53,974 nucleotides of DNA. It comes from SAR324 cluster bacterium. Lineage in GTDB: Bacteria; SAR324; NAC60-12. This document shows, piece after piece, positions 800-19,310 of the stretch. Every line of letters begins with the position of its first letter. Position 1 is the stretch's first letter. The DNA lies in NCBI GenBank assembly GCA_028282505.1, contig JANQHV010000554.1, positions 1 through 53,974 of the forward strand, written 5' to 3'. Below the pieces are notes generated by a model. The model was given only the letters and a program-made list of their open reading frames with translations, was not told where the DNA came from and ran no database searches. Position numbers and translations under genes: made by a program.

Positions 800-2317
800 A
801 TGAAGACATCTCAGCTGCATGTAGCGATTGCATTTATTTTAATTAACATCTTTTCATTTACTTATATTTTCACGTTCAGTGGTTTTTTCTTCCGAGATTA
901 TTCCATCATCTTTGACGGTGGACTCCGGATTTCTGCTGGACAAGTCCCTTACCGGGATTTTTATTTACCCATTGGCCCAATGGTTTTGTACTTACAGGCA
1001 TTTTTTAATTGGGTTATCGGAGCTGGTACAAACTCCTTGCTGCTGCATGCCAGTGTCTTAAACAGTATTGTCCTTTCCTGCTTCTTTCTATATGCTCAAA
1101 AACATATCAATCTCATTCCCGCACTTGGCCTCACATTCATTTTCCATTTTTTTTATTATGGTGCCACCGTCAATCCCTGGTACAATCACACAGCTCTTTT
1201 CTTTTATATCCTGGCTCAACTGCTGTTGTTGAATGAGTGTGAAAAAGAGTTTCGGCTTTCATGGCTAACACTGATAATGCTTGGCTTCCTTTCGACACTG
1301 AGCTTATTTTCCAAACAAGATATAGGCGCTTTAGGCATTGCTTTCATTGGTAGCCAAATCGTTTTTTTCTCGGTAAATCGCTGGAGAGATCTCATCATTT
1401 TTATTGTCACAATCGTTATATTCACCTCCCTCATCGTAGTCATTTACCAACAAGTCAGCGATTTTGGTTATTGGTTCAACTATGGACAGCCTCCTCATAG
1501 TTCAAGAATCCATCGCTTGAGCGGTCTCGTCGGGAAATACATGATTCGGGATGTGCGGTGGCATATTCTGGTGATTGTTCCTGTCTTGTTCCTCCTCCTG
1601 AAAGATTTTCGTCAAAATACCTGGATGCATCTGTATTTAACCTTGGGATTTGCCGGTTTCAGTTTGATTATCTTTCATACTTCTGGCCAATCCAGATGGA
1701 CGGCTTATTTTGCATTGCCTTTCGTAGGAGTATTCCTTATTCGACTTTTAATAGAGAATAAAAATTTCATACTTGCTGAAAAACATAAGAATACGGTGAT
1801 CTACCTGATATGTTGGATACTACTGGCCTATTGTTATCCCATTGCTTTGAAAAATATATCCCCTGTTGGTCTGAATCTCAATAAGTCGTATCACCCTTTG
1901 CAAAATAGTTCTTATCAAGGGATGCTTTTTCAATCCGAGGTTTTGGCAGGCATTGAAAAAATCAAAGCAGAGCTGCAAAACAAAAAAAGTAGTGATGATT
2001 CAGAGTGGCTACTCAACATGTCTTCTTATACTTTTCTTTACCAGGATTTTGGAGTAGTACCACCTGTAGGCACACATCTTTGGTATCATTTTGATGTGAC
2101 TACATTTGAAGAGGATTATCGTCGATTTAAAGAACGATTGCGGGAAAAACCTTTTGAATATATCTTATTGCAAGAAATGTCTTCAGGTACTCCAGAATCA
2201 GAATTTCATCAATACTTAGCATCAATTGGTTATCAATCTCTTTTCTCCGTTCCAACTCCTAAATCGGGCCGAGACAGACGATATGATCTAACCGTGTATC
2301 GATATTCGAACAAATAG
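800..2317 (+). CDS. Polytopic membrane protein, putative GT-C-fold glycosyltransferase
   Basis: About 10-11 hydrophobic segments, first loop RD...GQVPYRDF..P.GP, SKQD motif, soluble C-terminal tail. Confidence 0.6.
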   Translation: MKTSQLHVAIAFILINIFSFTYIFTFSGFFFRDYSIIFDGGLRISAGQVPYRDFYLPIGPMVLYLQAFFNWVIGAGTNSLLLHASVLNSIVLSCFFLYAQKHINLIPALGLTFIFHFFYYGATVNPWYNHTALFFYILAQLLLLNECEKEFRLSWLTLIMLGFLSTLSLFSKQDIGALGIAFIGSQIVFFSVNRWRDLIIFIVTIVIFTSLIVVIYQQVSDFGYWFNYGQPPHSSRIHRLSGLVGKYMIRDVRWHILVIVPVLFLLLKDFRQNTWMHLYLTLGFAGFSLIIFHTSGQSRWTAYFALPFVGVFLIRLLIENKNFILAEKHKNTVIYLICWILLAYCYPIALKNISPVGLNLNKSYHPLQNSSYQGMLFQSEVLAGIEKIKAELQNKKSSDDSEWLLNMSSYTFLYQDFGVVPPVGTHLWYHFDVTTFEEDYRRFKERLREKPFEYILLQEMSSGTPESEFHQYLASIGYQSLFSVPTPKSGRDRRYDLTVYRYSNK

Positions 2318-2339: not shown

Positions 2340-4511
2340 TTGCTCATGCTCAGACCTCACCTTCGTATTATCACGCAACACCCTCTCTTTTGGTGGATAT
2401 TGATCCTCAAACTGATAATGGGCATATTTTTGGGAAGTACATTCATCCGGGATCTATTTGCGCCATTTGTCCATTTTACAGCCATGCATCCTTTGAGTAA
2501 TCCGTGGGATTATTTTCATGCATCTGGACACGTCAAAAACTTTCCATATCATCTAGGGCTATTGTTCCCCTTGGCCATCACTCGTACACTGCTACTATGG
2601 CTACCTGATGCAGGGTATATGGTCACCACTTTTGTGGACTTTTTTGCGATCCGTCTTGTTTATCTCGTTGCCGATTTGTTGATCTATTTGGTGTTGACTA
2701 AAATTTTTCCAAATAGGATCTATCGCATCCTTTGTATATACTGGGCCAGCCCCTTGGTGTTTTATGCGGTTTATTTTCATGGACAGGTTGATTTAGTGCC
2801 CATTTCTGTTTTAATCCTGAGCATGTATTATCTCTACCGAAACAGGCTCAATCGCGTGGCGATTCTGTGTGGCCTGGCAATTGGGATGAAAACCACGGCC
2901 ATTTTAGTTGTACCTATCTTTTTTATCTATCTTCTGAAAAATCGAGGAACCAGGAACGCCATTCAGTTTGCGAGTGTGTGTGGATTAACCAGTGCATTTT
3001 TGATCTTTCCTTTGATTGCCAGTGAAGGCTACCAAAATATGGTATTAAAGGCAGAAGAACAAAGTTGGTTGTTTAGCCTTAAATACTATCTGCCATATAC
3101 CCAGGCCCATGTACTATTTGCTCCCGCAGTACTGGCGATTATTATCATTCGATTTACCTATTTTCCAAAAATCAATTTCGACTTGATGGTACTCTATGTT
3201 GGACTTTGTCTAGGAGTGATTGTCCTCTTGACACCACCAATGCCAGGCTGGTACCTGTGGATGTATTTTTCTTTAATCTTTTTTGTCGTAAAATTACGAC
3301 ACATTGCTTTAATGAGCTGGGCCTTGCTACATCTCGCTTATGTCCTATATTTTCTGGTATTTGCACCAACAGCTGACTTGTTTGATGGCTTCCAGTTGGT
3401 CATCCCAGCTGTAGTTAATTTAGAGCATCCACTGGAATTATTAAAAGTGTGGAACTTGCCGACTTTGTTACTCAAAGACCTCTCCATTACTTTCCTGAAT
3501 GCCATGCTGGTCATTCATCTGTATTGGCTTTATAAAGCAGGAATTCACTCTAATCAGATATTTCAACCACGAAAGCAACCCTTGATCATTGGAGTTGCGG
3601 GAGACAGTGGTACCGGTAAAGATACATTTTGTCACTTAATCACAGAATTGATGGGAGATAATCGTTTTACACGAATTGATGGGGATGATTACCATAAGTG
3701 GGAACGAGGAGACGAAAATTGGAAAATTCTGACTCATTGCCATGTTCAAAGCAATAAATTACATGAACAAATGCAAGACATCAATGGCTTAGCCTTTGGA
3801 GAAACCATTGAAAAAGTCCATTATGACCACGGTACCGGGCGTTTTACGAAACGACAGAGTGTCAACCCTAATGATTTTTTATTCATTAATGGATTACATA
3901 CATTTTACCTGGAAGATCTTCGAAATCTGATCGACCTGAAAGTTTTTATGCTGCCTGATGAACAAATCCGAAGATTTTGGAAAATTCAACGTGATGTCAA
4001 AGAACGTCAGCACAGCCCACAACATGTTGATGCAGAAATAAAAAGAAGGCTTCCCGACAGTCAAAAATATATCTATTCTCAGGCCCGCTACTCTGACATT
4101 GTATTCAGTTACCAACTCATGGAACCTCTCAATGAAAAAGCAATAGAACTCGAACAATTACCCCCTATCCAATTATTGATTGAAGGTTCTAATTCTTTTT
4201 ATTGGGAAGGCATCGTCCAACGCTTGAAAGAAGAAAAAAATTTGAGCGTTGATCATGAAATGGATGATATTGCTGTCAGGCAAAAAATAACCATCTCTGG
4301 AGATATCTCTCAACAAACCCTGATAAAGCTCGCCTCAGAAACCACTCCTAATCTTCATGAATTGGTCACGGAAACAGAAGCATGGTCTTCTGGACTTAAT
4401 GGAATTGTTCAGTTAATCACCATCCTTGGCATTTCTCACAAAATGCGGCTGAAACGAGATAGAAATGAAGGGATGGGACAAATGTCAACTTTCTATTCAT
4501 TTGGAGAATAA
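2340..4511 (+). CDS. Fusion of a GT-C-like (GT87/PigM-like) membrane domain and a phosphoribulokinase/uridine-kinase-like P-loop domain
   Basis: Residues 1-400 are polytopic with YFHGQVDL and GMK motifs. The C-terminal part has IIGVAGDSGTGKDT, GDDYH, YDHGTG, GLH and WKIQRDVKERQH, matching PRK-family motifs. ATG 2346 is an alternative start. Confidence 0.8.
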   Translation: MLMLRPHLRIITQHPLFWWILILKLIMGIFLGSTFIRDLFAPFVHFTAMHPLSNPWDYFHASGHVKNFPYHLGLLFPLAITRTLLLWLPDAGYMVTTFVDFFAIRLVYLVADLLIYLVLTKIFPNRIYRILCIYWASPLVFYAVYFHGQVDLVPISVLILSMYYLYRNRLNRVAILCGLAIGMKTTAILVVPIFFIYLLKNRGTRNAIQFASVCGLTSAFLIFPLIASEGYQNMVLKAEEQSWLFSLKYYLPYTQAHVLFAPAVLAIIIIRFTYFPKINFDLMVLYVGLCLGVIVLLTPPMPGWYLWMYFSLIFFVVKLRHIALMSWALLHLAYVLYFLVFAPTADLFDGFQLVIPAVVNLEHPLELLKVWNLPTLLLKDLSITFLNAMLVIHLYWLYKAGIHSNQIFQPRKQPLIIGVAGDSGTGKDTFCHLITELMGDNRFTRIDGDDYHKWERGDENWKILTHCHVQSNKLHEQMQDINGLAFGETIEKVHYDHGTGRFTKRQSVNPNDFLFINGLHTFYLEDLRNLIDLKVFMLPDEQIRRFWKIQRDVKERQHSPQHVDAEIKRRLPDSQKYIYSQARYSDIVFSYQLMEPLNEKAIELEQLPPIQLLIEGSNSFYWEGIVQRLKEEKNLSVDHEMDDIAVRQKITISGDISQQTLIKLASETTPNLHELVTETEAWSSGLNGIVQLITILGISHKMRLKRDRNEGMGQMSTFYSFGE

Positions 4512-4516
4512 ATAAG

Positions 4517-6142
4517 ATGCATATCATCATCCCAATGGCAGGCATGGGAGATCGTTTTGTAAAAGCAGGATACAAAACACCCAAGCCACTGATTGAAGTA
4601 GATGGATCTCCTGTCATTTCCCATATCTTGAAACAGTTCCCTGGAGAGGAACACATTACATTTATTTGCAATTCCCTTCATATAGAGACGACCAACCTAC
4701 GAAACATTCTACAATCGCTAGCACCCTCTGCACAAATTTGTGTGATTGATCCCCATAAACAAGGCCCTATTCATACTGTTCAACAAGTTTATGATCAAAT
4801 CGATGATGAGAAAGAAGTTCTTGTCAACTATTGTGACTTTCTATGGACATGGGATTATCAAAAATTTCAACAAACGGTTGCAGAACAACAGGCCGATGGA
4901 TGTATCCCGGCTTATATTGGTTTTCACCCTCATAGCCTTGGCCCTAATTTGTATGCTTATATGAGAGTTGAAGGCAATCGAGTGCTGGAAATTAAAGAGA
5001 AACATTGTTTCACTGATAACAAAATGCAGGAATATGCTTCATCAGGCACTTATTATTTTCGCACAGGCGCTTTACTCAAACATTATTTTGACAAAACAGT
5101 TGCCGCGAATGTCCACTTCAATCAAGAATTCTATTGCAGTTCCCCATTTGACTTGATGTGTCAAGATAATCGGTTGGTCACTGTCTATGAAGTAGATTCT
5201 TTCCTACAGTGGGGGACTCCAGAAGATTTGGAGGAATACATGGGATGGTCTGATGTATTCTTCAGGAAAACAGAAAACACTGCTCCTCCTTCACACACTA
5301 CTGGAAACCTCACAACCATTGTCCCAATGGCAGGACTGGGTAAACGTTTTGCTGATGAAGGTTATACGACCCCTAAACCATTAATTCCAGTTTCAGACCG
5401 ACCCATGGTGGAACAAGTCATTCGCAGTGGTCCACCTTCTGATAAAGTAATCGTGGTCGCTCAAAAAGCACATATCACCGCCCACCCTGAACTGAAAGAA
5501 ACATTACATCAATCTCATGATTCTTTAGAAATCATAGAGCTCGAAAAATTGACAGAAGGACAGGCTTGTACATGTTTGGTTGCTGCTGAAAAAATAGATG
5601 ATCAAACACCTCTCTTTATTGCCAGTTGTGACACACAACTGATGCTGGATTATCAAGCATTTGAGAAATTGCTGCAGAATCCTGAAATAGATGCCGCAAT
5701 TATTGGATTTACTCATTATCAACCTGCAGCAAGAAATCCGCAGGCATATGGCTGGCTCTTGCTTGATGAAGACAAGGTGCAAAAAGTTTCCACCAAAAAA
5801 CCTGTCAGTGAGACTCCCTTTCACGATTATGGAGTGGTTGGAGCATTTTATTTTCGTAAAACACAATTTTTTGTTGAGGGGGTAAAATCGCTGATTGAAA
5901 AAGATCGAAGAATCAACAATGAGTTTTATGTTGATGAAACGATGAATGAGCTGATTGAAACAGGATTAAATGTGGTGATGTTTCCTGTCATTCATTATAT
6001 TCCTTGGGGAACCCCTGATGAATTAAAGACATATCTTTATTGGCAGAACTATCTTCATCAAGCCGATCACCACCCTTATTTTATGCAAAACGACCCGGAC
6101 TTCATTTCTGAACATTTCAAAGAGTTAGGAAATCGAATTTAA
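4517..6142 (+). CDS. Tandem two-domain sugar-phosphate nucleotidyltransferase (GT-A/GlmU-like)
   Basis: IIPMAGxGxRFxxxGYxTPKPLI occurs twice (residues ~4 and ~268). Each half ends in NxEFY...WGTPE/DxL. Confidence 0.85.
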   Translation: MHIIIPMAGMGDRFVKAGYKTPKPLIEVDGSPVISHILKQFPGEEHITFICNSLHIETTNLRNILQSLAPSAQICVIDPHKQGPIHTVQQVYDQIDDEKEVLVNYCDFLWTWDYQKFQQTVAEQQADGCIPAYIGFHPHSLGPNLYAYMRVEGNRVLEIKEKHCFTDNKMQEYASSGTYYFRTGALLKHYFDKTVAANVHFNQEFYCSSPFDLMCQDNRLVTVYEVDSFLQWGTPEDLEEYMGWSDVFFRKTENTAPPSHTTGNLTTIVPMAGLGKRFADEGYTTPKPLIPVSDRPMVEQVIRSGPPSDKVIVVAQKAHITAHPELKETLHQSHDSLEIIELEKLTEGQACTCLVAAEKIDDQTPLFIASCDTQLMLDYQAFEKLLQNPEIDAAIIGFTHYQPAARNPQAYGWLLLDEDKVQKVSTKKPVSETPFHDYGVVGAFYFRKTQFFVEGVKSLIEKDRRINNEFYVDETMNELIETGLNVVMFPVIHYIPWGTPDELKTYLYWQNYLHQADHHPYFMQNDPDFISEHFKELGNRI

Positions 6143-6271
6143 GATTTTTGACATAAATCTGTCAAACTCAGGAAAAAGAGGGGGATTTCATTTGAGTTTT
6201 CTTACATAATCTATGTTTACACTTGCTTAAAAAAATATCGTGATAATTTAATTTCTTTCAAGAATGACTTA

Positions 6272-6323
6272 GAACCCATCAGAGAATGACAAATCGTAAA
6301 AAAACGAATTCTCTAACAGGTTC
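6272..6323. mobile_element. 52-bp IS5-like miniature relic
   Basis: Imperfect terminal inverted repeats GAACCCATCAGAGAAT / ATTCTCTAACAGGTTC (13/16), with TTA on both flanks (6269-6271, 6324-6326). Confidence 0.5.
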
Positions 6324-6565
6324 TTAGTCTTCAACTCACTAATATTTGCGTTAGGCGAGTATGCAGAGAGACTCTTTCTTTTTCAAAAGATACCAAGTGG
6401 CTCACTTGGACTTTAAAAGTCGTTTTCTGGAACTAAAATCAAGAAATCAAATCAGTTTAAGTGCGACACTATCCACAAGCATCCGTCACCGGCCAAGTCA
6501 AAACATCAAGTGAAACTATCAACTTTAGTGATGAGAATTCGGCAAATTTTAAGCGATTTTTGAAC

Positions 6566-7072
6566 CTAGCTCAAATGGGAGCATTGGTTCGCCAGAGCCG
6601 GCTTTTCGCGTAGCTGTTCTTTGAATTGTTGAAGAAACTGTGACACTCGCTCTGGCGATTGATCCAGCTGACCAAACAGGTCCACATAGTGCTTTTGAGC
6701 GACCTCTGCAATTTCTGTGTGCTGATCTTGAGGACACCCCAATAGCATAGCGAGTGAGTCCAAGTGGTCGCCAGAACCCATTGAAGCTTCTTCTCGAAGC
6801 TGCGCATGGATATTTTTGACATAATTCTCTTGAATCTCAATCATTGAAAAATTGCCAGAGCAATTTGATGTACCTAAAGTCGTTCCCACAGCATAAGTCG
6901 GTAATGATGTTGAGATGTTGATAATAAAATTGGCAACACCTTTGATACCACCACCTCCACCCGTGACGAGTGAGGGAACTCCACAACTAGTTGGAGCATT
7001 GGCCCAGATGTGACTTGGTACGACGATGAATCCAAGAATCGTGATGAATAACAAGAGTTTGTTTTTTTTCAT
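6566..7072 (-). CDS. Secreted DUF3015-like protein
   Basis: Signal peptide, CG...GTSNC and E.S.GSGDHLDSLA.LLGC pattern, C-terminal Cys. Confidence 0.65.
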   Translation of the reverse strand: MKKNKLLLFITILGFIVVPSHIWANAPTSCGVPSLVTGGGGGIKGVANFIINISTSLPTYAVGTTLGTSNCSGNFSMIEIQENYVKNIHAQLREEASMGSGDHLDSLAMLLGCPQDQHTEIAEVAQKHYVDLFGQLDQSPERVSQFLQQFKEQLREKPALANQCSHLS

Positions 7073-7358
7073 AGCTTTGTCCTCATAATGCTTTCAATTG
7101 ATACAACAGGGATAAGACTGTCTCCATCCAGTAAAGCGTTATACCCCTCTGTCTGAATAACTTCCGAACACATTTGTCTCTATTTTTTCCCTCCATGTCA
7201 ATAAATTTTTAATTTTTTCATGATCTCCTTGAAAGAACCAGAAAAAATCGAACTCCAAAAAGAAGAAATGGAGCGTTCACTGGATCACCTCGTATCCAAT
7301 TGATTATAGAATTGAATTGCAGATCAAGTGTACTCGATTCCTGAACCTCAAAAAATGA

Positions 7359-8243
7359 TTAAAGTTTTCTATTCAAAACCTCTAATTTATCAGGATTGCG
7401 GATACCGTAAATGCGTTGGATTACTTGTGCATGAATGTCCATAGTAATTGCAGTTGTTAAAGCTCCATTTTCAAGGATGAGAGCCCCTGGAGCACCATTG
7501 AACCATTGGGGAACAAATTCAACATTGATATTGTTTGCTTTATATTGTTTCCAAATGTTGATAAAAAATTTTCCAATGGATTCAGCACCTATCAGAACAT
7601 CAACAAGAGCATTCACTTTTCCACCGCCATCTGCATATAACTCAGCATTATTCGCCAATATTTCCTTAAAAAGTTCCAATTTCCCCTGTCGAGAAGCTTG
7701 AAAAAAGACCTCCAAAAATTTTTGCTGTTCTTCTGGAGTTGTCTGAAATCTAGGTTTGTCTTGGTGAATGTGTTGACGTGCTCGTTTTGCAATCTGTCGG
7801 CAGTTGGTACTAGTTTTCCCGACAATTTTTGCTATTTCGTCAAAAGAATAATCAAAAACTTCATAAAGTAGATAAACGGCCCTTTCCATGGGCGATAATT
7901 TTTCGAGTGTCATTAACAAAGCCACTGAAACGGTTTCATCAAGCTGCATTTGTGCGTACGGTTCAAGATTGGTTTCCTGCACTAAAGGTTCAGGAAGCCA
8001 TAGCCCGAAATAAGATGTCCTCTTCACTCGCACTAATCGCAATGCATTGAGGGACAGGCGACTACAGACTTTGATCAACCACGCACGTGGGTTTTGGATT
8101 GTATCTAGCTTTACGTTTTTCCACTCAAGATAGGTATCTTGTACCACATCTTGGGCTTCAGCCAAAGAACCGAGCATTCTGTAAGCGAGCCCCTCTAACG
8201 TTTGGCGATTTTGTTCAAATATTTGTGTTTTTTTCTGTTCCAT
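7359..8243 (-). CDS. sigJ: ECF41 (SigJ-type) RNA polymerase sigma factor with SnoaL-like C-terminal extension
   Basis: AYRMLGS.AEAQDVVQD in region 2, plus the ECF41 signature motifs WLPEP, DGGG and NPDKL. Confidence 0.9.
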   Translation of the reverse strand: MEQKKTQIFEQNRQTLEGLAYRMLGSLAEAQDVVQDTYLEWKNVKLDTIQNPRAWLIKVCSRLSLNALRLVRVKRTSYFGLWLPEPLVQETNLEPYAQMQLDETVSVALLMTLEKLSPMERAVYLLYEVFDYSFDEIAKIVGKTSTNCRQIAKRARQHIHQDKPRFQTTPEEQQKFLEVFFQASRQGKLELFKEILANNAELYADGGGKVNALVDVLIGAESIGKFFINIWKQYKANNINVEFVPQWFNGAPGALILENGALTTAITMDIHAQVIQRIYGIRNPDKLEVLNRKL

Positions 8244-8252
8244 GAGAATCCT

Positions 8253-9263
8253 TTAACACGGGTTGGACATCAATACAGCATAACGCCACCCTTTTGAAGT
8301 TAAACGATAAATGTGTGTATATTTTTGATATGTCGAATAAACCCCATTTCTTTCAGAGCAATTTTCCATTTCCACTTCTTGACGCCCTGTCTCCACTACA
8401 ATCGATCCACTACGTTCGATTTTTTCTGGGTATTTTTGAAACTTCACGAATGAAGCTTTCTGGAAAAGTTGCTCTTCAGCGATCTGTAACTTTTCTCGTC
8501 CCATAATGATGTCATGCCCAGGAATCATTAATTGTACATCTTCCGTGCAAACATTGGCATAGGAAGCGGCATCTCCATCAATAATTGCTTGGGTTTGTTG
8601 GGCTCTCACCAGGCCAATTTCTTTTTTTTCTTCTGCCGTAATTTCTCCAATCCATTTTGGCATTTCTGGTGTTTGGAACAGAGCATCAATCTGTCGCTGA
8701 GCTTGTTGGAAAAAACGAGAACGTTCTTTTTCCTCCAATGCAGTTCCTTCCAAAATCACTGTTTTCACAGGCTCAATTCCAATAAAATTTAGAATCGCTT
8801 GTAAGTATTCAGTTTGAAAATCCTCATTAGATCCCCCATTAGAAACTCCTCCTCTGACTGAAATGACAGCAGCTTGCTTGCCTGCTAGCAGTCCCTGATA
8901 TTGTTCATCTTTTACCTGGAATGTCAGTCCGTCACGTACTACGTAATCAAAATAAGCTTTGAGAGAAGATGGGAGAGTGAAATTATACAATGGGCTGCTG
9001 ATCAACAAATGATCCATCGATTTCAGTTCCTGAATCAACATATTGGATAATGCTGTTTCAGGGATCAGCTGGCCTCCTGACTTGTGAAAAAACTGAATCA
9101 TCTCATTCGAAATATGGGGAATTGTATCAATGGCAAGATCCCTTACCAAGACCTTTGCTTGAGGGAATTGTTTTTCCCATCTGCTTTGAAAATAGTCCGC
9201 AATATTTCGTGAATGTGAACCGTTGATTCTGGCACTTGTATTAATTCGTAATAATGTTGTCAT
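8253..9263 (-). CDS. azoR: FMN-dependent NADH-azoreductase (AzoR/AcpD) fused to a C-terminal SnoaL/NTF2-like domain
   Basis: TSAR..GSHSR, PLYNFTLPSSLKAYFD, GLL.GK, RGG and FIGI in the first ~200 aa. The last ~130 aa read like DUF4440 (GDA..YA..CTEDV.LM.PG...GRE...W). Confidence 0.8.
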   Translation of the reverse strand: MTTLLRINTSARINGSHSRNIADYFQSRWEKQFPQAKVLVRDLAIDTIPHISNEMIQFFHKSGGQLIPETALSNMLIQELKSMDHLLISSPLYNFTLPSSLKAYFDYVVRDGLTFQVKDEQYQGLLAGKQAAVISVRGGVSNGGSNEDFQTEYLQAILNFIGIEPVKTVILEGTALEEKERSRFFQQAQRQIDALFQTPEMPKWIGEITAEEKKEIGLVRAQQTQAIIDGDAASYANVCTEDVQLMIPGHDIIMGREKLQIAEEQLFQKASFVKFQKYPEKIERSGSIVVETGRQEVEMENCSERNGVYSTYQKYTHIYRLTSKGWRYAVLMSNPC

Positions 9264-9320
9264 GAGATTTCCAAGATTGAAAGGTTGCTTAATATAAACT
9301 GTTTGAGGTCTTATAAGTAA

Positions 9321-9347
9321 GACACATCAATCTGTTAAAATGTGACA
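9321..9347 (-). promoter_or_regulatory. Putative ECF41-dependent promoter of the azoR-sigJ operon
   Basis: Minus strand reads TGTCACA-N16-TGTC, ending 58 bp before the ATG at 9263. The ECF41 consensus is TGTCACA-N16-CGTC. A second match, TGTCACA-N16-AGTC, lies at 9475-9501. Confidence 0.75.
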
Positions 9348-9594
9348 CCCAAGCAAAAAAATTATAATATGACTGTATAATCACCAAACTTTTTGTTGGA
9401 GAATCCATCAAGAGCCTAAAGTTTTTTCTTTCTATATTTGGGAACAAATACAACATGATATTTGCAATCCCAACGACTATGGTTTAAACTTTGGTGTGAC
9501 ATAATATTCTCCTGTCACTAATGTCCGGTTAGTATCTCAGATGCAAATTTTTAACTGGATATTACTGAAACCATTACCATACCCCTTTGAACCT

Positions 9595-10305
9595 ATGTTC
9601 TCTGCTAAAGCCATTTTATTAGATCTTGATGACACATTATATGCTTACTCTCCTTGTCATCAAGCAGGTTTGGATGCTTTTTCGGCAACTTGGGAAAACC
9701 TGAATCTTGGCGATCAAGAAGAAGCCCTTAAATATTATCATGTTGCAAGAAAAGAAATCCATGCCACCTTAAAAGGATCTGCGGCCTCTCATCACCGGCT
9801 TCTCTATGTCCAACGCGCACTGGAAAAACGATTAGATCATTTGGATGTAAAAAAAACATTGAAACTGTATGACGCCTATTGGTCAGCTTATTTAGAAACA
9901 ATGGTGCTATCCACAGGAGCCAGAGAATGGCTGGAATGGCTACAATCCAAAAAGATTCCTGTGGTGATTGTGACGAATCTCGTGACAGAAATACAGTTTG
10001 AGAAAATCTGCAAACTTGGTATTGAAGGACTGATACAATTTATAGTCACCTCAGAGGAAAGTGGACATGAAAAGCCTCATACCGATCCATTTTTATTAGC
10101 CCTCAAGAAACTGAATATTCCGATTGATCCTGATGTTTATGTAGTGGGAGACTCGTTCCGCGCTGATGTCACTGGAGCACAGTCTTTGGGATTGTCTTGG
10201 ATTTGGATTGCATCTAGCCATGAGGATAAGATAGTATCTGAACTTCCTGAACAAGGAATCTGTGTACATTCTTTTGAAGAATTAATAACCATGATGGAGG
10301 AATAA
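9595..10305 (+). CDS. HAD-superfamily phosphatase (class IA)
   Basis: Motifs DLDDTL, VTN, EKP and VGDS...D. Likely start is ATG 9595. Confidence 0.9.
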   Translation: MFSAKAILLDLDDTLYAYSPCHQAGLDAFSATWENLNLGDQEEALKYYHVARKEIHATLKGSAASHHRLLYVQRALEKRLDHLDVKKTLKLYDAYWSAYLETMVLSTGAREWLEWLQSKKIPVVIVTNLVTEIQFEKICKLGIEGLIQFIVTSEESGHEKPHTDPFLLALKKLNIPIDPDVYVVGDSFRADVTGAQSLGLSWIWIASSHEDKIVSELPEQGICVHSFEELITMMEE

Positions 10306-10335
10306 CTGAAACAGAAATCTCTCATCAACTCCGGT

Positions 10336-10740
10336 TTGTTTTGCCGCTTAAAGCAGGAAGTTTATAATCCGACGACCAGGAAACAGATACTCCGATTTTT
10401 AGTTGCAGGGTTCTCAGCAGTGGGGACTGATACGATTGTATACTTTGTCTTGCTATCTGTACTCGGACATAATGTTGCCAAAACAATTTCTTTCATTTCA
10501 GGAAGTATTGTTGCCTTCCTAATTAACAAATTCTACACTTTTGAACAGCATCTTCTTTCCTGGCAAGAAGTCGTGCGTTTTGCTGTACTTTATATCAGCA
10601 CTCTCTTTGCCAATGTTGCGGTAAATGCCGGTGTTTTATGGATATTAACCGATTGGGTAAAGTTAGCATTTTTAATGGCTACAGGCACTTCGACGGTGCT
10701 TAATTTTTTAGGTCAAAAATTTTGGGTATTCAAGAAATGA
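10336..10740 (+). CDS. GtrA-family lipid-linked sugar flippase
   Basis: Four TM segments, RFLVAG....D, FLINKFYTF and NFLGQKFWVF. Confidence 0.9.
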   Translation: MFCRLKQEVYNPTTRKQILRFLVAGFSAVGTDTIVYFVLLSVLGHNVAKTISFISGSIVAFLINKFYTFEQHLLSWQEVVRFAVLYISTLFANVAVNAGVLWILTDWVKLAFLMATGTSTVLNFLGQKFWVFKK

Positions 10741-11477
10741 CAAAAACTCGATTTTCTATCATCATTCCATGTTATAATGAAGAAAAAAATATACCGTTGA
10801 ATTTGGAACGGTACAGTCAGGTCATTCAGCGCTCCGATATAGAATTGGTCATTGTCAATAACGGTTCAACCGATGGTTCTGCGCAAGTTTTGGAGGAACT
10901 CCTTCCTCAATACTCATTTGCCAGAGTTGTCAATGTCGAGAAAAATCAAGGATATGGTTTTGGTATTCTTTCCGGATTACGAGCTGCAAAAGGTGATTTT
11001 CTCGGGTGGACTCATGCTGACATGCAAACAGACCCGGCTGATGCTTTGACAGCATTTGCCATTATGGAACAACAGAAAAATCCGGAATTGACCTATGTCA
11101 AAGGGTTACGTGAAAATCGTCCCTGGATGGATGAATTTTTTACAAAAGGCATGAGTCTTTTTGAAACACTTTACCTGGGTCAAAAGTTATACGATATCAA
11201 CGCACAACCCAACCTATTTCATCGCTCTTTTTTTGAATCATGGAAAAATCCTCCCCATGATTTTTCCCTCGATTTGTACACATTCTATGAAGCCCGACGT
11301 CATCGTTTGAGAATCATTCGATTTTCCGTTCTATTCCCAGATCGTATTCATGGCGAATCCTCCTGGAATACGGGACTGGCGGCCAAATGGAAATTTATCA
11401 AGCGTACTTTAGACTTTAGTGTGAAACTGAAAAAAAGTTTAGGAACTCATGCACCTCATCTCACATCGCCGGAATAA
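10737..11477 (+). CDS. GT2 glycosyltransferase (DPM1/GtrB-like)
   Basis: SIIIPCYNEE, NNGSTDGS, NQGYG, HADMQTDP, R.HGES. The ATG overlaps the gtrA stop codon. Confidence 0.9.
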   Translation: MTKTRFSIIIPCYNEEKNIPLNLERYSQVIQRSDIELVIVNNGSTDGSAQVLEELLPQYSFARVVNVEKNQGYGFGILSGLRAAKGDFLGWTHADMQTDPADALTAFAIMEQQKNPELTYVKGLRENRPWMDEFFTKGMSLFETLYLGQKLYDINAQPNLFHRSFFESWKNPPHDFSLDLYTFYEARRHRLRIIRFSVLFPDRIHGESSWNTGLAAKWKFIKRTLDFSVKLKKSLGTHAPHLTSPE

Positions 11478-12030
11478 AATTCAAGAATTGATCGACACCC
11501 CCAAACAATATGGAGTTGAAATCGATTTACGCTCTTGGCAAAACACACTCATTCTTCAGCACGATCCTTTTGTGGAAGGTGAGCCCTTTACCGAGTGGAT
11601 AAAGCACTACGACCATGGCACCTTAATCTTAAATATCAAAGAAGAAGGCATTGAATATTTAGCAAAAGAAATTGTGGAAGCCCAAGGCATCCAGGATTAT
11701 TTCTTTCTCGACCTCTCTTTCCCATTTCTCATCAAAATGATGAAGACGGGAGAATCACGAATTGCAGCACGCTTTTCTGAATATGAATCCCTCGAAACCG
11801 TGTTAACACTCCGTGAAAAAATCGAATGGATTTGGGTAGATTGTTTTAATGATTTACCGCTGACTGAGGAAAACTACAATCAATTGAAAGAAGCGGGGTT
11901 TAAGCTTTGTCTGGTCTCTCCAGAACTCCAGGGAAGACCAGAAGAACTGAAAGCTTATCAGGAAACTCTTGAAAAAAATAGTTGGCGTTTTGACGCGGTT
12001 TGTACAAAAAGAGTGGACTTGTGGTCCTAG
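11449..12030 (+). CDS. GDPD/PI-PLC-like TIM-barrel phosphodiesterase family protein
   Basis: ISHRRN, GVEIDLR, HD, NIKEEG, WVD, VSPELQ, DAVCTK. Confidence 0.7.
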   Translation: MHLISHRRNKIQELIDTPKQYGVEIDLRSWQNTLILQHDPFVEGEPFTEWIKHYDHGTLILNIKEEGIEYLAKEIVEAQGIQDYFFLDLSFPFLIKMMKTGESRIAARFSEYESLETVLTLREKIEWIWVDCFNDLPLTEENYNQLKEAGFKLCLVSPELQGRPEELKAYQETLEKNSWRFDAVCTKRVDLWS

Positions 12031-12058: not shown

Positions 12059-12931
12059 TTGTTAAAAATAATTGAGGACCTTGGAGTTAAAAGAGCATTT
12101 TTAGAACTTAAAAAGCATAATACAGTTCCCTTATACGAAGCCTCAAAAAATTGGATAAAAAATAAACACATCCCATACCAATGGATTGTACCAGAGCAAT
12201 GGCAAAACTTCAAAACCAGCGATACTGTGTTTCTGTTTGGTTCAGGTCCCTCTATTAATGACATTACTGAAGAAGAATGGAAAATCATCAAAAGTCATGA
12301 TTCCTTTGGGTTGAATTTTGCGTTTTTGACTTACACTCCGATGACTTTTTTTTATTTGGGGTATGAGCCATCCTCTAAGCAGATTATATTAGATGCATTT
12401 AACGAAGAAATCCGCAAAATTTACAAAGACACTTTATGGTTTGTTCCCTCCAAAGTATTATGTCGACTGGTTCATCCCCGGACAATCCCTGAATTTTTTC
12501 CTCCTTCTCCCAAATTAGCAAATTTTAACTTACCTAATGCCATTTATTTAGAAGCAGATCGTCCTTTTCAAAGGGAAGATTTCCAAAATAGCTTGATGTA
12601 TCGTGGGGTGATGGGTGTAGGAATACATTTAGCCAATCAATTAGGATACCGCAACATTGTTCTCATGGGAGTTGATCTACACACTTATCATCATTTCTTT
12701 GATGATTTTGAAGTAACCAAAGAAGAGCGAAAAATCTATAATCAAAAAATGGCTCCAGGGAAAGTATTTGAAGCCATGATTCCAAAGTATGAAAAATATA
12801 GAACCATGGAAGAATATTATTATGCCTTGAATGAATTATACTTTCCATCCAAAGGAATGCACTTATATGTAGGCAACAAAAACAACATGTTGAGCCCTCG
12901 TATTCCTATTTTTCCTGAGTTTGATAAATGA
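12059..12931 (+). CDS. Maf/DUF115 or Cst-like putative glycosyltransferase
   Basis: FLFGSGPSI near the N-terminus and LGYRNIVLMGVDL near the C-terminus. Confidence 0.55.
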   Translation: MLKIIEDLGVKRAFLELKKHNTVPLYEASKNWIKNKHIPYQWIVPEQWQNFKTSDTVFLFGSGPSINDITEEEWKIIKSHDSFGLNFAFLTYTPMTFFYLGYEPSSKQIILDAFNEEIRKIYKDTLWFVPSKVLCRLVHPRTIPEFFPPSPKLANFNLPNAIYLEADRPFQREDFQNSLMYRGVMGVGIHLANQLGYRNIVLMGVDLHTYHHFFDDFEVTKEERKIYNQKMAPGKVFEAMIPKYEKYRTMEEYYYALNELYFPSKGMHLYVGNKNNMLSPRIPIFPEFDK

Positions 12932-13641
12932 CGTTTGATAAATATCAAAAATATGGGGCTTATCATTGGAATGACATAGACACTAGTACTTTCAAGCGAC
13001 TACTCAATCGTTCCCTTCCTTTGTACACACGCTATGATCAATGCCTTAAAAATATACCCTCAAACAGTGAATATGGTATTGAAATAGGTTGTGGTGACGG
13101 CGCATTGAGTTATTTGATTGCCCAACATGGAGTCAATAAAGTATTGGGGTGTGATACCGATCCTACTGCCATTGAACTGGCCCAAAACCAGGTAATGAAT
13201 TTACCACTCAAGCACAGGATTCAATTCGAATGCGCCCTCTTTGAAGATTGTAATATCCAAACAAGTAGTGTTGATGTTGTTGTACTTGCCGATGTGATTG
13301 AACATTTAGAAGACCCTATCTCTTTGTTAAAAGAAATTAAACGAGTCGGAAAAATTGGAGGAACACTAATAGTGACAACACCGAGGGCTCGCCCAGATAG
13401 ATTATGGGATACACATCATGTCACTGAATACACAGAAAATTCTTTAGAAGTTTTATTAAAACAATGTTTCTCTCACGTGGAAATCGTTGTGTTCATGCCT
13501 ATAGTTTTTTATCGCTTATACACTCGATTTCGAATCTGTCGCAACCTTTTTAATTTGTTTACTCAAATGGGGATCAATCCATTCAATTTCCGAATTCCTT
13601 TTCACAATCATGCCATGTTACTCGGCGTGTGCCATTTTTAA
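12928..13641 (+). CDS. Class I SAM-dependent methyltransferase
   Basis: IEIGCGDG, DVIEHL.DP, GG.LIVTTP. Confidence 0.9.
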   Translation: MTFDKYQKYGAYHWNDIDTSTFKRLLNRSLPLYTRYDQCLKNIPSNSEYGIEIGCGDGALSYLIAQHGVNKVLGCDTDPTAIELAQNQVMNLPLKHRIQFECALFEDCNIQTSSVDVVVLADVIEHLEDPISLLKEIKRVGKIGGTLIVTTPRARPDRLWDTHHVTEYTENSLEVLLKQCFSHVEIVVFMPIVFYRLYTRFRICRNLFNLFTQMGINPFNFRIPFHNHAMLLGVCHF

Positions 13642-13688
13642 ATATTTCTGCTCGCTATCTCGAATCCGATCTATACAAAATCTTACCA

Positions 13689-15077
13689 ATGGAAAAGCAC
13701 CGCTTCGCTCTACAAAGTTTACTATCACCTGCACAGGTCATCACTGAGGATATCCGGTCATTTGGTCATGACCGAATGCCACGTTATATTTCGGCTTCCA
13801 ATCCCATGATGGTGGTCTTGCCTCAAAGCACAGAGGAAGTCCAAAGCATTCTTCAGTATTGTACAAAACACCAGCTTCCCCTGGTACCATCTGGTGGACG
13901 CACTGGATTATCAGGAGGGGCCGTAGCAGCAAAGGGTGAAATTGTACTGTCGTTGTCTAAAATGAATCGTATTGTGGATATCGACCCCGTCAATCAATCG
14001 GTCACTTGTGAGGCAGGGGTGATTCAGGAGAATTTAGACCAAGCATTGGAACCTTATGGAGCAACATTACCATATACCTTAGGCTCTAAAGGTTCCTGTC
14101 AAATTGGAGGCAACGTTTCCACTAATGTAGGAGGATTGAAATATAGTGAATATGGCCCATTACGTAATTATGTCCTGGGTTTGGAAGTAGTGTTGGGCAA
14201 TGGTACGGTCTTGGATTTGAATCACAAAGTGCATAAAAACAATGCAGGAGTGGACCTCAAACAGCTTTTCATTGGAGCTGAAGGAATTTTAGGAATAATT
14301 ACTCAGATCACCCTCAAATATGTTAACAACGATCCCCATTTTCATTTGTTCATGTTGGGGACACACTCAATGGATCAAGCCGTAGAAAGTGTGCTAACAC
14401 TCAAAAGGCGAAGGTTTACACTGAAAGCGGTAGAATTTCTTTCAAGGAACTGTTTAGAATCGGTGGTTGGAAACATACCTTCCATGAAAGATCCATTCCT
14501 GACTCCTCATAATTTTTATCTTTTATTTCAGATCAATGCCCGCCAGCATGAGGAGATATCGGTCTTTGACGTGTGCAATGATTTACTGGAACAAAACTTG
14601 GCCCAAGATTGTGTATTTGCGCAAAGCACTATGGAACGTCGACTATTGTGGGATTTGCGGGAGAACATTTCCGAAAGTTTGAATCAACGAGGTGCGGTAC
14701 ATCGCAATGATTTAGCATTGCCCTTGAGTCAGTTATCAGATTTTGTTAAAGCGCTGGATACTTTGATCCAAAAAGAATACTCTCCCTTTCAGGTCTATCG
14801 CTATGGACATTTAGGGGACGGTAACATTCATTTGAATATCCTTGCTCCCTCAAATTATGCACAAGAACGATTTGAGAAACGTTGCGATGTTTTGGATGAA
14901 CGATTGTTCCAACTGGTTCACGAATTCGGAGGTGCAATTAGTGCTGAGCATGGTATTGGCCTATTACGCAAACCATATGTGTCACTGACAAAATCCCCTG
15001 AAGAACTCTCCCTACTCCAGCAGCTCAAAACAATTTTTGATCCACACGGTATCCTCAATCCTGGTAAGGTAATTTGA
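13689..15077 (+). CDS. FAD-linked oxidoreductase, D-2-hydroxyacid dehydrogenase (D2HGDH/GlcD) family
   Basis: GGRTGLSGG, CQIGGNVSTNVGG, KNNAGVDLKQLFIGAEG, GHLGDGNIH, SAEHGIG, DPHGILNPGK. Confidence 0.9.
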   Translation: MEKHRFALQSLLSPAQVITEDIRSFGHDRMPRYISASNPMMVVLPQSTEEVQSILQYCTKHQLPLVPSGGRTGLSGGAVAAKGEIVLSLSKMNRIVDIDPVNQSVTCEAGVIQENLDQALEPYGATLPYTLGSKGSCQIGGNVSTNVGGLKYSEYGPLRNYVLGLEVVLGNGTVLDLNHKVHKNNAGVDLKQLFIGAEGILGIITQITLKYVNNDPHFHLFMLGTHSMDQAVESVLTLKRRRFTLKAVEFLSRNCLESVVGNIPSMKDPFLTPHNFYLLFQINARQHEEISVFDVCNDLLEQNLAQDCVFAQSTMERRLLWDLRENISESLNQRGAVHRNDLALPLSQLSDFVKALDTLIQKEYSPFQVYRYGHLGDGNIHLNILAPSNYAQERFEKRCDVLDERLFQLVHEFGGAISAEHGIGLLRKPYVSLTKSPEELSLLQQLKTIFDPHGILNPGKVI

Positions 15078-15099: not shown

Positions 15100-16854
15100 A
15101 TGTTACAGCGATTTAAAATCTTATACTTACTGTGGGGACTGTTGAAGCACCACAAAGTACAATTTTTGTTATGCCTGTTTTTTGTATTTTTGAATTCTAT
15201 CCTGCTCGGGGGAATTTTAAGTTTTTTAATGCCCGTGATTAATCAGTTTTTTGCACTAGATACGGTTGTTACTAAAACAAACAACGGATATTTTGGAAAA
15301 ATTTTAAACATTTACCAAAGTATCATACGTGATTTTGAGTATAAGGAATTAATTGCCATTGGAGTGCTTTTTCTAATGATGATCGTGAATTCAACGGTTA
15401 AATTTTTGATTATCTATGTCAATAGTGGTTTGATGGCAAATATGACATACGAATTCCGCAGGCAGATTTATTGGATTATCCAAAAGTTGCGATTTGTTGA
15501 AGTTTCCACAGAAGCAAAAGGCACCTTCATTCAACTCATTATCACGGAAACCAAAAGCATCAACAATTTATTCAAACATGGACTTTTACTGATTACAGCA
15601 ACTGTCAATGCTTGTATCATTGCGTTATTGTTAATGCTTCTTTCATGGAAAATGTGTGTGGGGCTATTATTGGGCTACCTCGTTGTGCTTTATATCAATT
15701 CATACATCATTCGAGGAATAAAGATTCTGGGAAAGGAGGCCCTTAATTTGCGATCGGAGCTGGCAAATCATATTACAGAAGGGATCTGGGGACTGAAGCA
15801 ATTAAAGATAATACAGGCCGAAGCACTGGAGAAACAAAAAATAAACCAGGTGTCATTTCGCTCAGAATTCAAAGCACGGACACTCGTCGTCAAAAATGGT
15901 TTACTCAAATTTACCTCCCAAAGCCTTTCTACCATTTTGGTCTTTATCATTTTTGTTTTGTGGTTTTATTTTCCAGTTTTGTCGGAAGATATACCCCGCA
16001 AAGCAGGATTTTTAACATTTTTGATTCTGTTGAGCCGACTGGCACCTCATGTCAATGCCATTTCCAGTAATTACGGTCAATTGTCTTCCATCTTGCCTTC
16101 CATTTTACGACTTCATGAGTTTTATACAAAAGAACTCGAACCCGAGCAGAGTGGTTCTTTAAAGCCTGAGCCTTTTTTGCAAGAAGAAATTCATCTGCAA
16201 AATGTTGAATTTGGATATCTTGACGATAAGCCAATACTCAAGGGTATCAATTTAAAAATACAAAAGGGTGCCTACATTGGGATTGTCGGAAATTCTGGTG
16301 GAGGCAAATCAACTTTGTTGAACTTATTTCCTCGCCTTTATGCTCCTGATAAAGGAAAAATTTTGATTGATAATGTAAATGTCGAAGAATTCGATCTATC
16401 GTACCTTCGCGCAAAAATTGGGATAATTTCACAAGATTTTGTTCTATTCAATACAACGATTCGTGAAAATCTAGCCCTGGGCAAACCACAAGCTTCTGAA
16501 GAAGAATTATGGCAGGCGCTTGAAAAATCAGGTTTACAGCAATTTGTTCAGGCTCAGGAGGATGGCCTTGATTATCAGGTCGGAAACAATGGTAGTAAAT
16601 TATCAGGGGGCCAACGTCAACGCTTATCATTGGCCTCCCTGTTTTTACAAGACCTGGAGTTAATTATCCTGGATGAGGGGACGAGTTCTGTTGATCCCGA
16701 AACAGAAAGGCATATCTTAAATTCTTTACAAGAACTGCATAAAAAAGGGATCACGATTATTTCCATTGCCCATAAAGAAAGCGCATTGGCTGATGCAGAA
16801 TGTATTTATGAATTGAGTGAAGGTCACTTACAACTAAAATCTCCTGCAGTGTGA
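15100..16854 (+). CDS. ABC exporter, fused permease and ATPase (MsbA/PglK-like), copy 1
   Basis: Six-TM N-terminal domain, Walker A GNSGGGKS, LSGGQRQR, ILDEGTS, IAH. Confidence 0.9.
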   Translation: MLQRFKILYLLWGLLKHHKVQFLLCLFFVFLNSILLGGILSFLMPVINQFFALDTVVTKTNNGYFGKILNIYQSIIRDFEYKELIAIGVLFLMMIVNSTVKFLIIYVNSGLMANMTYEFRRQIYWIIQKLRFVEVSTEAKGTFIQLIITETKSINNLFKHGLLLITATVNACIIALLLMLLSWKMCVGLLLGYLVVLYINSYIIRGIKILGKEALNLRSELANHITEGIWGLKQLKIIQAEALEKQKINQVSFRSEFKARTLVVKNGLLKFTSQSLSTILVFIIFVLWFYFPVLSEDIPRKAGFLTFLILLSRLAPHVNAISSNYGQLSSILPSILRLHEFYTKELEPEQSGSLKPEPFLQEEIHLQNVEFGYLDDKPILKGINLKIQKGAYIGIVGNSGGGKSTLLNLFPRLYAPDKGKILIDNVNVEEFDLSYLRAKIGIISQDFVLFNTTIRENLALGKPQASEEELWQALEKSGLQQFVQAQEDGLDYQVGNNGSKLSGGQRQRLSLASLFLQDLELIILDEGTSSVDPETERHILNSLQELHKKGITIISIAHKESALADAECIYELSEGHLQLKSPAV

Positions 16855-16943
16855 TCCTTAAATATCCTATTTAATTCTTTTTCGATAATGAGAATGATGT
16901 GATCCAAATTGAAGTCATCGTACCTGTTTCATCAGCTATTCCC

Positions 16944-17298: not shown

Positions 17299-17332
17299 CG
17301 ATGAGTTCAGTATCTCGCCTGTTGGAATGGCT

Positions 17333-17418
17333 TATTAGAGCGGGGGAAGGCAATAACTTGTGGTGAGCGGTACAAATTGATATAGTGACGGATTGATAAC
17401 CGTTGCTGTAGAGGATAG
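17333..17418 (+). repeat. R1 repeat copy 1 (structured intergenic element; other copies 18942-19027 and 20776-20858)
   Basis: Shared core AGGCAATAACTTGTGGT followed by hairpin TAGTGACGG/CCGTTGCTG (17383-17408) and GAGGATAG. Confidence 0.85.
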
Positions 17419-17474
17419 TCAAAAATCACCTAAGGCACAACGGCACTCATCCTATATAAAAAGAAGGATATCCA

Positions 17475-17753: not shown

Positions 17754-17763
17754 TAAAAGCCTA

Positions 17764-19308: not shown

Positions 19309-19310
19309 TA

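Follow-up and report, generated by a model that had tools for sequence, protein, structure and literature searches.

In a 53,974-nt contig of a SAR324 cluster bacterium (JANQHV010000554.1, assembly GCA_028282505.1; 'the window' below means this whole stretch), a gene that we call K joins a membrane glycosyltransferase domain of the GT-C type to a complete phosphoribulokinase (PRK) domain. K heads a cassette of six genes (Table 1), the others encoding a tandem nucleotidyltransferase (N), a HAD phosphatase (H), a GtrA-family membrane protein (A), a GT2 glycosyltransferase (G) and a protein of the GDPD/PI-PLC fold (U). The six genes are one conserved, co-inherited unit that probably serves to assemble an unusual five-carbon sugar on a carrier lipid and to link this sugar to the cell surface. 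The reading we favour, with moderate confidence, is a mobile polyprenyl-phosphate glycosylation cassette (GtrA/GT2/GT-C) that decorates an extracytoplasmic glycan or protein; the sugar precursor would stem from the pentose-phosphate pool, along a previously undescribed route. A preliminary description of the same DNA had called the double nucleotidyltransferase, HAD, GtrA, GT2 and GDPD-like genes next to the fusion, and all six genes were found in place.

A glycosyltransferase domain joined to a phosphoribulokinase domain

K is a single open reading frame (ORF) of 723 aa when counted from a TTG codon; as the database copy has 721 aa, the true start is probably the ATG at 2346. The translation holds the motifs GVAGDSGTGKD, GDDYHKWER, NGLHTFY and WKIQRDVKERQHS. 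The first ~410 residues are polytopic, and residues 416-590 match PF00485 in Pfam (E 1.5e-30, 106.9 bits against a cut-off of 22). An AlphaFold (AF2) model of K, built on 26 homologues (pLDDT 87.6, pTM 0.82), was compared with 48,161 PDB representatives by structural alignment with VIA-align. Residues 6-413 aligned with GPI mannosyltransferase I (9wno) at Z 26.1 over 350 residues, and further GT-C matches included ALG3 (9s6r, Z 24.6), ALG6 (6sni, Z 24.2), PIG-U, ArnT (5f15, Z 18.9) and PimE (Z 18.5). Scattered GT-C families (PF03155, PF09594, PF26314 and PF06728) are found among the precomputed annotations of K relatives. In an alignment of 26 sequences, D112, D151, K184 and the PGW motif (P302-G303-W307) of the membrane domain are invariant and E240 nearly so; with invariant polar residues of its own, this domain is also under selection.

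Table 1. Features of the cassette and adjoining genes in the window
Feature	Position (nt)	Strand	Basis
K, GT-C domain fused to phosphoribulokinase-type domain	2340..4511	+	Pfam, NCBIfam, AF2 model, 26-sequence alignment
K, GT-C domain (residues ~6-413)	~2355-3578	+	
K, PRK domain, complete (residues ~412-707)	~3573-4460	+	
N, tandem nucleotidyltransferase, 541 aa	4517..6142	+	PF00483, PF12804, two stretches (7-189, 269-400)
H, HAD-IA phosphatase	9541..10305	+	NF053830 best family
A, GtrA-family small membrane protein	10336..10740	+	PF04138, E 2.3e-18
G, short soluble GT2, candidate polyprenyl-phosphate glycosyltransferase, 251 aa	10722..11477	+	PF00535, E 2e-22
U, GDPD/PI-PLC-fold phosphodiesterase-like protein, 193 aa	11449..12030	+	AF2 model, pLDDT 96.6
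Three-gene insertion: DUF3015, SigJ-type ECF (extracytoplasmic function) sigma factor, flavodoxin-like/DUF4440 reductase	6566..9263	-	Pfam, NCBIfam
Polytopic PMT_2-like (GT-C-like) membrane protein, 505 aa, upstream of K	800..2317	+	PMT_2 E 9.8e-5, below cut-off

The fusion is widely conserved. A collection of 5.8 billion proteins yielded 59 other matching proteins; in 55 of these the match extends over at least 78% of K, at 26-40% identity, a likeness far beyond chance. The GT-C domain used alone as a query against 1.84 billion representatives retrieved 745 clusters at E <= 0.001, and 123 of the best 150 representatives have at least 600 aa, which indicates that this GT-C subfamily is almost always kinase-fused. 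A frameshift artefact as the origin of K is ruled out by the single ORF together with the conservation of the fusion across relatives. The preliminary description, which reported a GT-C-like domain fused to a domain with PRK-type motifs, was therefore right on all three counts: the fold agrees, the fusion is real and every motif it quoted is present in the translation.

Public annotation labels the fusion 'uridine kinase' or 'phosphoribulokinase/uridine kinase'. By each of three comparisons PRK outscores uridine kinase, in agreement with the PRK-like kinase proposed earlier. NCBIfam gives 184.8 bits for the PRK family NF005655 versus 77.5 bits for uridine kinase (2.4-fold); the PDB sequence matches have E 5e-33 for PRK and 5e-13 for uridine kinase; and K residues 412-701 of the model align with PRK 9qko_B at Z 30.5 over 283 residues (Methanospirillum PRK 5b3f, Z 28.7), whereas uridine kinases reach Z ~21 and cover only the core. 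K includes the PRK-specific C-terminal part, which uridine kinases do not have.

The catalytic dyad of PRK is given as Asp57/His105 in the accessible text of PMC9978339; that of bioRxiv 10.1101/422709 places Arg64 and Tyr103 at the phosphate site for ribulose 5-phosphate (Ru5P), with Asp160 catalytic and Arg159 and Arg164 binding Ru5P. The CrPRK numbering was mapped onto K by motif, via alignment to cyanobacterial PRK. The residues of K that correspond to Asp57, His105, Arg64, Tyr103, Arg159, Asp160 and Arg164 (D449, H497, R456, Y495, R551, D552 and R556) are invariant in 26 of 26 family members. A search for the large subunit of RuBisCO (PF00016) gave no match in six genomes, the window's (88% complete) and those of five isolates with the cassette.

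It is improbable, in our judgment, that the kinase acts on a nucleoside or another small molecule, or on a lipid-linked sugar held by the GT-C domain, with its PRK likeness a matter of ancestry only. PF00485 spans PRK and uridine kinase alike, the NF005655 score is below its cut-off, uridine kinases still align at Z ~21, the public label names uridine kinase, and a membrane tether would suit a lipid-linked substrate. Against this stand the seven invariant catalytic and Ru5P-binding residues and the PRK C-terminal part; moreover, H and an aldolase-like partner described below come from families acting on ribulose 1,5-bisphosphate (RuBP) or ketose 1-phosphates, and both occur fused to the kinase.

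Several relatives of the window organism also carry stand-alone PRK-like genes with frames of 313-383 aa, 29-34% identical to the K kinase and with no GT-C part (e.g. G033:C4:415796-416344, G037:C431:2504-3052 and G011:C68:13996-14559). The PRK homologues of candidate phyla radiation (CPR) bacteria treated by Jaffe et al. are, in the accessible text of PMC6389311, stand-alone ones only.

Seven linked genes in a patchy, mobile distribution

Relatives of K were found in at least 464 species genomes by a scan of one genome per species with an alignment-based query (the same scan with a single protein gave no match). From these stretches, at least 464 in number, we took 80 loci for gene-set counts; 46 of them, called complete below, have flanks of 8 kb or more on either side of K. 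In tblastn searches with the window proteins, N was found in 76 of the 80 loci, G in 75, U in 69, H in 61 and GtrA in 23. A regular gap of ~1.1 kb in the locus maps proved to be a seventh gene, Ald, encoding a protein of ~360 aa of the class II aldolase/adducin family that is present in 69 of the 80 loci. Among the complete loci, N occurs in 46, G in 45 and U, H and Ald in 43 each. The neighbourhood analysis thus bears out the co-occurrence of six genes on which the preliminary description relied (43-46 of 46 for N, G, U and H; 18 of 46 for GtrA), while its inventory missed Ald, a core gene. Single-linkage clustering of all locus ORFs, in which families were merged in clusters, revealed no further widely shared gene; proteins of ~530-610 aa adjoining some cassettes matched no Pfam family.

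Ald matches PF00596 (E 5e-15 in locus L079 of Virgibacillus necropolis, gene at 12645-13733, and 8e-17 in locus L076). Invariant in 22 sequences are E108, H121, H123, H186 and the motifs GGGNxSxK and KxSG; E108 and the three histidines are presumably equivalent to the metal ligands of FucA. The protein has an invariant phosphate loop and an extra conserved C-terminal region. Among solved structures an aldolase domain that is uncharacterised (3m4r, E 1.5e-27) comes closest, and fuculose-1-phosphate aldolases rank next. Loci without Ald (three of the 46 complete ones and the window) are scattered over a tree of K (FastTree, 79 sequences with K of at least 600 aa, midpoint-rooted), which points to secondary loss or relocation of the gene. 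A sister locus of the window (L005) has the order K-Ald-N-H-G-U, and the window itself K-N-[insert]-H-A-G-U.

Several cassette parts were found fused to K in other genomes. GtrA precedes the GT-C and PRK domains in two archaeal loci (L016:3150-5636 and L041:9587-12067, ~826 aa), and several representatives of ~830-840 aa from the GT-C query are further candidates for this arrangement. A GT-C-PRK-HAD fusion of 927 aa occurs in Lachnospiraceae (L012:1827-4610), and a GT-C-PRK-aldolase fusion of 1058 aa in CPR bacteria (L027:9929-13105; L028:4155-7331 is of equal length). Such Rosetta-stone fusions tie the parts of the cassette together, and their permuted nature suggests a membrane-tethered assembly.

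The distribution is patchy and the element mobile. Hosts include CPR bacteria, DPANN and other archaea, Firmicutes (Paenibacillus, Virgibacillus, Halobacillus and Lachnospiraceae among them), Bacteroidota, Melainabacteria, Leptospira, Acetobacter and others, with Virgibacillus necropolis, Halobacillus halophilus, Paenibacillus tianmuensis, Zeaxanthinibacter enoshimensis and Acetobacter lovaniensis as carriers in culture; among 40 genomes sharing the genus, family or order of the window organism, none matched K outside the kinase domain. Full-length K was found on plasmids of Azospirillum brasilense and Escherichia coli. On Azospirillum plasmid p5 the cassette adjoins wzm/wzt-type ABC transporter genes, gmd, fcl and GT1 genes. 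In E. coli, the IncR plasmid NZ_CP145712.1 (locus L085, 6022-14984) carries the whole cassette beside an IS26 transposase, in the order nucleotidyltransferase, GtrA, GT2, PI-PLC/GDPD, 'uridine kinase' (K), HAD, class II aldolase and a 586-aa hypothetical protein. It is present in two of 5426 complete E. coli genomes, each time on a plasmid of ~33 kb (the other being NZ_JCAPUP010000005.1); a distant blastn search of these genomes with K, HAD and Ald, made for a link to xylulose-bearing E. coli O95, found the two plasmids only, a DNA search being blind to distant homologues. A phage collection yielded one match, to the kinase only.

Partner enzymes and a proposed route to a lipid-linked sugar

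N consists of N1 (residues 1 to ~258) and N2 (residues ~259-541), which are two separate genes in many other genomes; N1 was found in 71 of the 80 loci, N2 in 72 and both in 69. The two belong to separate orthologous groups, and each keeps the signature PMxGxGxRF...KPLI plus motifs of its own, so that both look catalytically competent and different from one another. H has the RuBP 5-phosphatase family NF053830 as its best match (E 1.9e-56, 191.3 bits; next family 104 bits). All 28 members of the H family match NF053830 as well, and D28 and D30 of the HAD catalytic DxD are invariant in the 28 sequences. This lends independent support to the kinase-phosphatase-nucleotidyltransferase logic put forward in the preliminary description. 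The RuBP 5-phosphatase of haloarchaea is described, in the accessible part of PMC9700705, as strictly RuBP-specific, with cyclised ribulose 1-phosphate (Ru1P) as its product, and as sharing an operon with a class II Ru1P aldolase.

In PDB sequence searches G matched DPMS (5mlz, E 4.9e-10), ArnC (6.7e-9) and the GtrB-type sll0501 (3.7e-8). U matched no Pfam or NCBIfam family at E <= 0.01, and a PDB profile search with it returned nothing relevant; it has no evident signal peptide or membrane segment. A Foldseek search with its model found GDPD TIM barrels (E 2.4e-6 to 3ks5; TMq 0.67-0.77, with 0.75 to 7e0v; 51 chains at E <= 0.001). In 28 homologues E24, D26 and H38 are invariant and H6, R7 and N9 at least 90% conserved, residues which we take to fit the GDPD catalytic pattern HR ... 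E.D ... HD. PGAP labels the plasmid orthologues of U as PI-PLC/GDPD family, and the GDPD-like call made earlier is upheld by the model and by the conserved catalytic-type residues.

The route we propose builds on the folds, catalytic residues, gene linkage, fusions and mobility observed and on the RuBisCO search; we infer every substrate in it, the order of its third and fourth steps and the sugar, in our judgment a pentulofuranose or else a pentose that derives from one. The cytoplasmic PRK domain, tethered to the GT-C domain, would convert Ru5P to RuBP, and the HAD would take off the 5-phosphate to give (cyclised) Ru1P. In most genomes the Zn-type Ald would then tailor the ketose 1-phosphate, most likely by epimerisation through retro-aldol and aldol reactions. 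The two distinct nucleotidyltransferases and U would provide a nucleotide-activated donor, from which the GT2, with or without GtrA, would load the sugar on polyprenyl phosphate; the GT-C domain would finally transfer it outside the membrane. In E. coli, PRK without RuBisCO is toxic because RuBP is a dead end, and this would account for the phosphatase accompanying the kinase.

The phosphate of Ru1P is on C1, not on the anomeric C2, so a nucleotidyltransferase and a GT2 alone give no glycosyl donor. The pathway scheme of the preliminary description stands in its conserved unit, its fusion, its PRK-like kinase and its enzyme logic, but passes over this obstacle and leaves the GDPD-like protein and the second nucleotidyltransferase without a function. 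One speculative solution to the 'wrong-carbon' problem, to which we give a slim chance, is a relay moving the phosphate from C1 to the anomeric C2. The first nucleotidyltransferase would activate the C1 phosphate of pentulose 1-phosphate to a nucleoside diphosphate (NDP)-1-pentulose; U would let the anomeric C2 hydroxyl attack, with nucleoside monophosphate leaving, to form a pentulofuranose 1,2-cyclic phosphate; ring opening would leave the phosphate at C2; and the second nucleotidyltransferase would make NDP-2-pentulofuranose, a true ketofuranosyl donor that would serve first the GT2 and next the GT-C domain. As precedents, fructose 2,6-bisphosphate has been synthesised via a 1,2-cyclic phosphate, and the GDPD-fold phospholipases D of spiders make cyclic phosphates. 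The relay is the only reading that uses both nucleotidyltransferases and U.

The obstacle could also be avoided if the product were an aldopentofuranose, D-arabinofuranose (D-Araf) or D-ribofuranose, although we think this unlikely. Ru1P would be isomerised to the aldose 1-phosphate (the reverse of the MtnA or ribose-1,5-bisphosphate isomerase reaction), activated and loaded on polyprenyl phosphate, a counterpart of decaprenyl-phosphate arabinose independent of phosphoribosyl pyrophosphate (PRPP). An aldose 1-phosphate is an ordinary substrate for NTP_transferase-type enzymes and GT2s, and AftA and AftB, GT-Cs that use polyprenyl-phosphate Araf, are among the structural matches of K (Z 11.8-13.0). 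Devosia submarina has polymers of both D-Araf and D-xylulofuranose, according to the accessible part of PMC8707391. However, no MtnA/e2b2 isomerase is among the conserved cassette genes of the 80 loci, the GDPD-fold protein and second nucleotidyltransferase would be left without a role, and the top GT-C matches of K are Dol-P-Man and Dol-P-Glc enzymes, not arabinosyltransferases. Class II aldolase-fold enzymes, furthermore, enolise the C3 side and not C1.

Ald raises another alternative, in which the soluble enzymes form a catabolic shunt from Ru5P through RuBP and Ru1P to dihydroxyacetone phosphate (DHAP) and glycolaldehyde. This would be the haloarchaeal pathway entered via PRK, with the linkage to glycosylation incidental or with glycolaldehyde or DHAP as a building block. 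HAD and class II aldolase do correspond to the RuBP phosphatase/Ru1P aldolase pair in the accessible part of PMC9700705, and Ald keeps the full aldolase metal site and, along its entire length, shows homology to the aldolase part of aldolase/SDR enzymes. We nonetheless consider the shunt very unlikely: the nucleotidyltransferases, GT2 and U accompany the fusion in 43-46 of the 46 complete loci, the set is fused to a GT-C, DHAP needs no special supply, and the cassette persists without Ald in three complete loci and in the window. The scatter of these loci over the K tree fits a tailoring step better than a product-making one.

Several observations weigh against the glycosylation route that we prefer. 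The kinase and phosphatase score below their family cut-offs (184.8 against 236 bits for NF005655; 191.3 against 330 for the NF053830 equivalog), and in the membrane domain of K the Pfam match to PMT_2 is weak (residues 101-224, 22.4 bits against a cut-off of 26.1). The first extracytoplasmic loop is the site of the catalytic Asp in many GT-Cs, and in the corresponding stretch of K (residues 31-71) no Asp or Glu is invariant in the 26 sequences. The best PDB sequence match of G is chondroitin synthase (5e-11), not a polyprenyl-phosphate transferase, and GtrB has C-terminal membrane helices whereas G, at 251 aa, is short and taken as soluble. GtrA was found by profile, one built from stand-alone sequences only, in no more than 30 of the 80 loci and 18 of the 46 complete ones. 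The nearest relatives of Ald are true aldolases, and such an enzyme would destroy the pentulose instead of tailoring it. The window cassette does not have Ald at all, and the sole match to the Ald profile in its genome is a 661-aa bifunctional aldolase/SDR protein (C78:4598-6583, - strand). Finally, the scheme needs an extra, unproven step to reach a glycosyl donor.

The window copy and known systems

The absence of Ald and the presence of the insertion mean that the window copy may make an untailored sugar, need a gene elsewhere or be decaying. That it is incomplete or decaying, its Ald gone and its operon split by three foreign genes, is possible but doubtful, and would be compatible with the other readings. 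Ald is kept in the sister locus and in 43 of the 46 complete loci; in the window's genome, the search for it found only the aldolase/SDR gene, the N-terminal ~400 residues of whose product are homologous to the full length of Ald, and a weak FucA-like match on C363. Yet all six remaining genes are intact frames that keep their invariant residues, the K-N junction is tight (5 bases), and ~12% of the genome is unassembled, so that Ald may lie elsewhere. The insertion separates N from H. None of its three genes occurs in any of the 80 related loci, so the term 'unrelated insertion' in the preliminary description was fair; repeats flanking it were sought and only short, chance-sized matches were found.

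The cassette sits in a large surface-glycan region of the window. The 505-aa protein upstream of K occurs in none of the 80 loci, with PMT_2 in 14-34% of the members of Atlas neighbour clusters; with an hhalign probability of only 37% against the K family, it was rejected as a paralogue of that family's membrane domain. Three genes follow directly 3' of the cassette (12059-15077): one for a protein of 290 aa that matches no family, one for a class I methyltransferase, which has relatives in four of the 80 loci, and one for a GlcD-like FAD oxidase (13629-15077) faintly similar to DprE1 (E 3.7e-13). Neither the protein of 290 aa nor the oxidase occurs in any of the 80 loci.

A second glycan block (29325-47040) encodes NeuB and a CMP-sugar synthetase, an MptE-like protein, a sulfotransferase, a CTP_transf_3-HAD fusion, a 679-aa PMT_2 GT-C (the third PMT_2 protein), rmlC/rmlD, a GHMP kinase with a nucleotidyltransferase, an epimerase, a radical SAM/SPASM protein and two GT1s. 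Two MsbA/HepA-like ABC exporters (15100-16854 and 27356-29104; 49% mutual identity) bracket a TIR/toxin-antitoxin island amid the glycan genes. A TIR-domain protein, a pentapeptide-repeat/TIR fusion and two more pentapeptide-repeat proteins are encoded at 16909-22324, which may be a defence island, and a RelE-family toxin with an HTH/MqsA-like antitoxin at 26188-26879 (- strand).

Three-component polyprenyl-phosphate-sugar systems are known from O-antigen glucosylation (GtrA/GtrB/GtrV), teichoic-acid glycosylation (CsbB-GtcA-YfhO) and PpgS-Rv3632-Rv3779. As in these systems, the cassette encodes a GtrA-family protein, a GT2 and a GT-C together, and the GT-C would act outside the membrane. Whereas they draw on housekeeping UDP-sugars, the cassette brings a precursor branch of its own (PRK, HAD, Ald, two nucleotidyltransferases and the GDPD-fold protein), with the first enzyme of the pathway fused to its last.

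The proposed order of reactions resembles GDP- and ADP-heptose synthesis (HddA/HldE, GmhB and HddC/HldE), in which a 1,n-bisphosphate is made, a HAD drops the distal phosphate and nucleotidylation follows. The heptose kinases, however, phosphorylate the anomeric C1 of an aldose and PRK the non-anomeric C1 of a ketose, and the enzyme families differ. In the decaprenyl-phosphoarabinose route, PRPP and decaprenyl phosphate yield decaprenylphosphoryl ribose 5-phosphate (DPPR), then decaprenylphosphoryl ribose (DPR) and decaprenylphosphoryl arabinose (DPA), which serves GT-C arabinosyltransferases. In the cassette as in this route, the pentose-phosphate pool would supply a pentose that travels on polyprenyl phosphate to a GT-C, but the cassette conserves no UbiA-type phosphoribosyltransferase and no DprE1/E2.

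The kinase shares the fold, P-loop, dyad and Ru5P-binding residues with the PRKs of cyanobacteria, plants and methanogens (6hzk, 6kev, 9qko and 5b3f); unlike these, it lies behind a GT-C domain of ~410 residues, in hosts in which RuBisCO was not found (six of six genomes). With the pentose bisphosphate pathway of haloarchaea, a non-carboxylating one, as it appears in the accessible part of PMC9700705, the cassette has in common a HAD of the RuBP-phosphatase family and a class II aldolase-family partner. The haloarchaeal pathway is catabolic there and obtains RuBP from nucleosides via ribose-1,5-bisphosphate isomerase, whereas in the cassette RuBP would come from PRK. The cassette genes are also locked to glycosylation genes, its HAD is below the equivalog cut-off (191 versus 330) and its Ald, at ~360 aa, has an extra C-terminal region. 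A literature search found no published study of the fusion or of the cassette.

To our knowledge, and with no search aimed at it, no donor has been described for xylulofuranose. This sugar is a known but rare component of glycans (PMC8707391, PMC9614988), reported in the accessible part of PMC8707391 from E. coli O95, Y. enterocolitica O:10, C. jejuni RM1221, Eubacterium saburreum and Devosia. The cassette is a candidate for the missing donor pathway of pentulofuranose residues. Were the phosphate relay true, activated pentulofuranoses (ribulo- or xylulofuranose) would have a biosynthetic route for the first time, and PRK and RuBP a new use outside photosynthesis. The seven cassette proteins are small, mostly soluble and easily assayed.

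Textbooks treat PRK and RuBP as marks of the Calvin cycle. In the cassette, a complete PRK is joined to a membrane glycosyltransferase, and this in hundreds of species that are not autotrophs, among them CPR and DPANN organisms with tiny genomes; a PRK match in a metagenome is therefore not to be taken as a sign of carbon fixation. Since the cassette is self-contained and is carried on plasmids, one of them in E. coli, a change of the cell surface in a single transfer is possible, which bears on phage receptors and serotypes.

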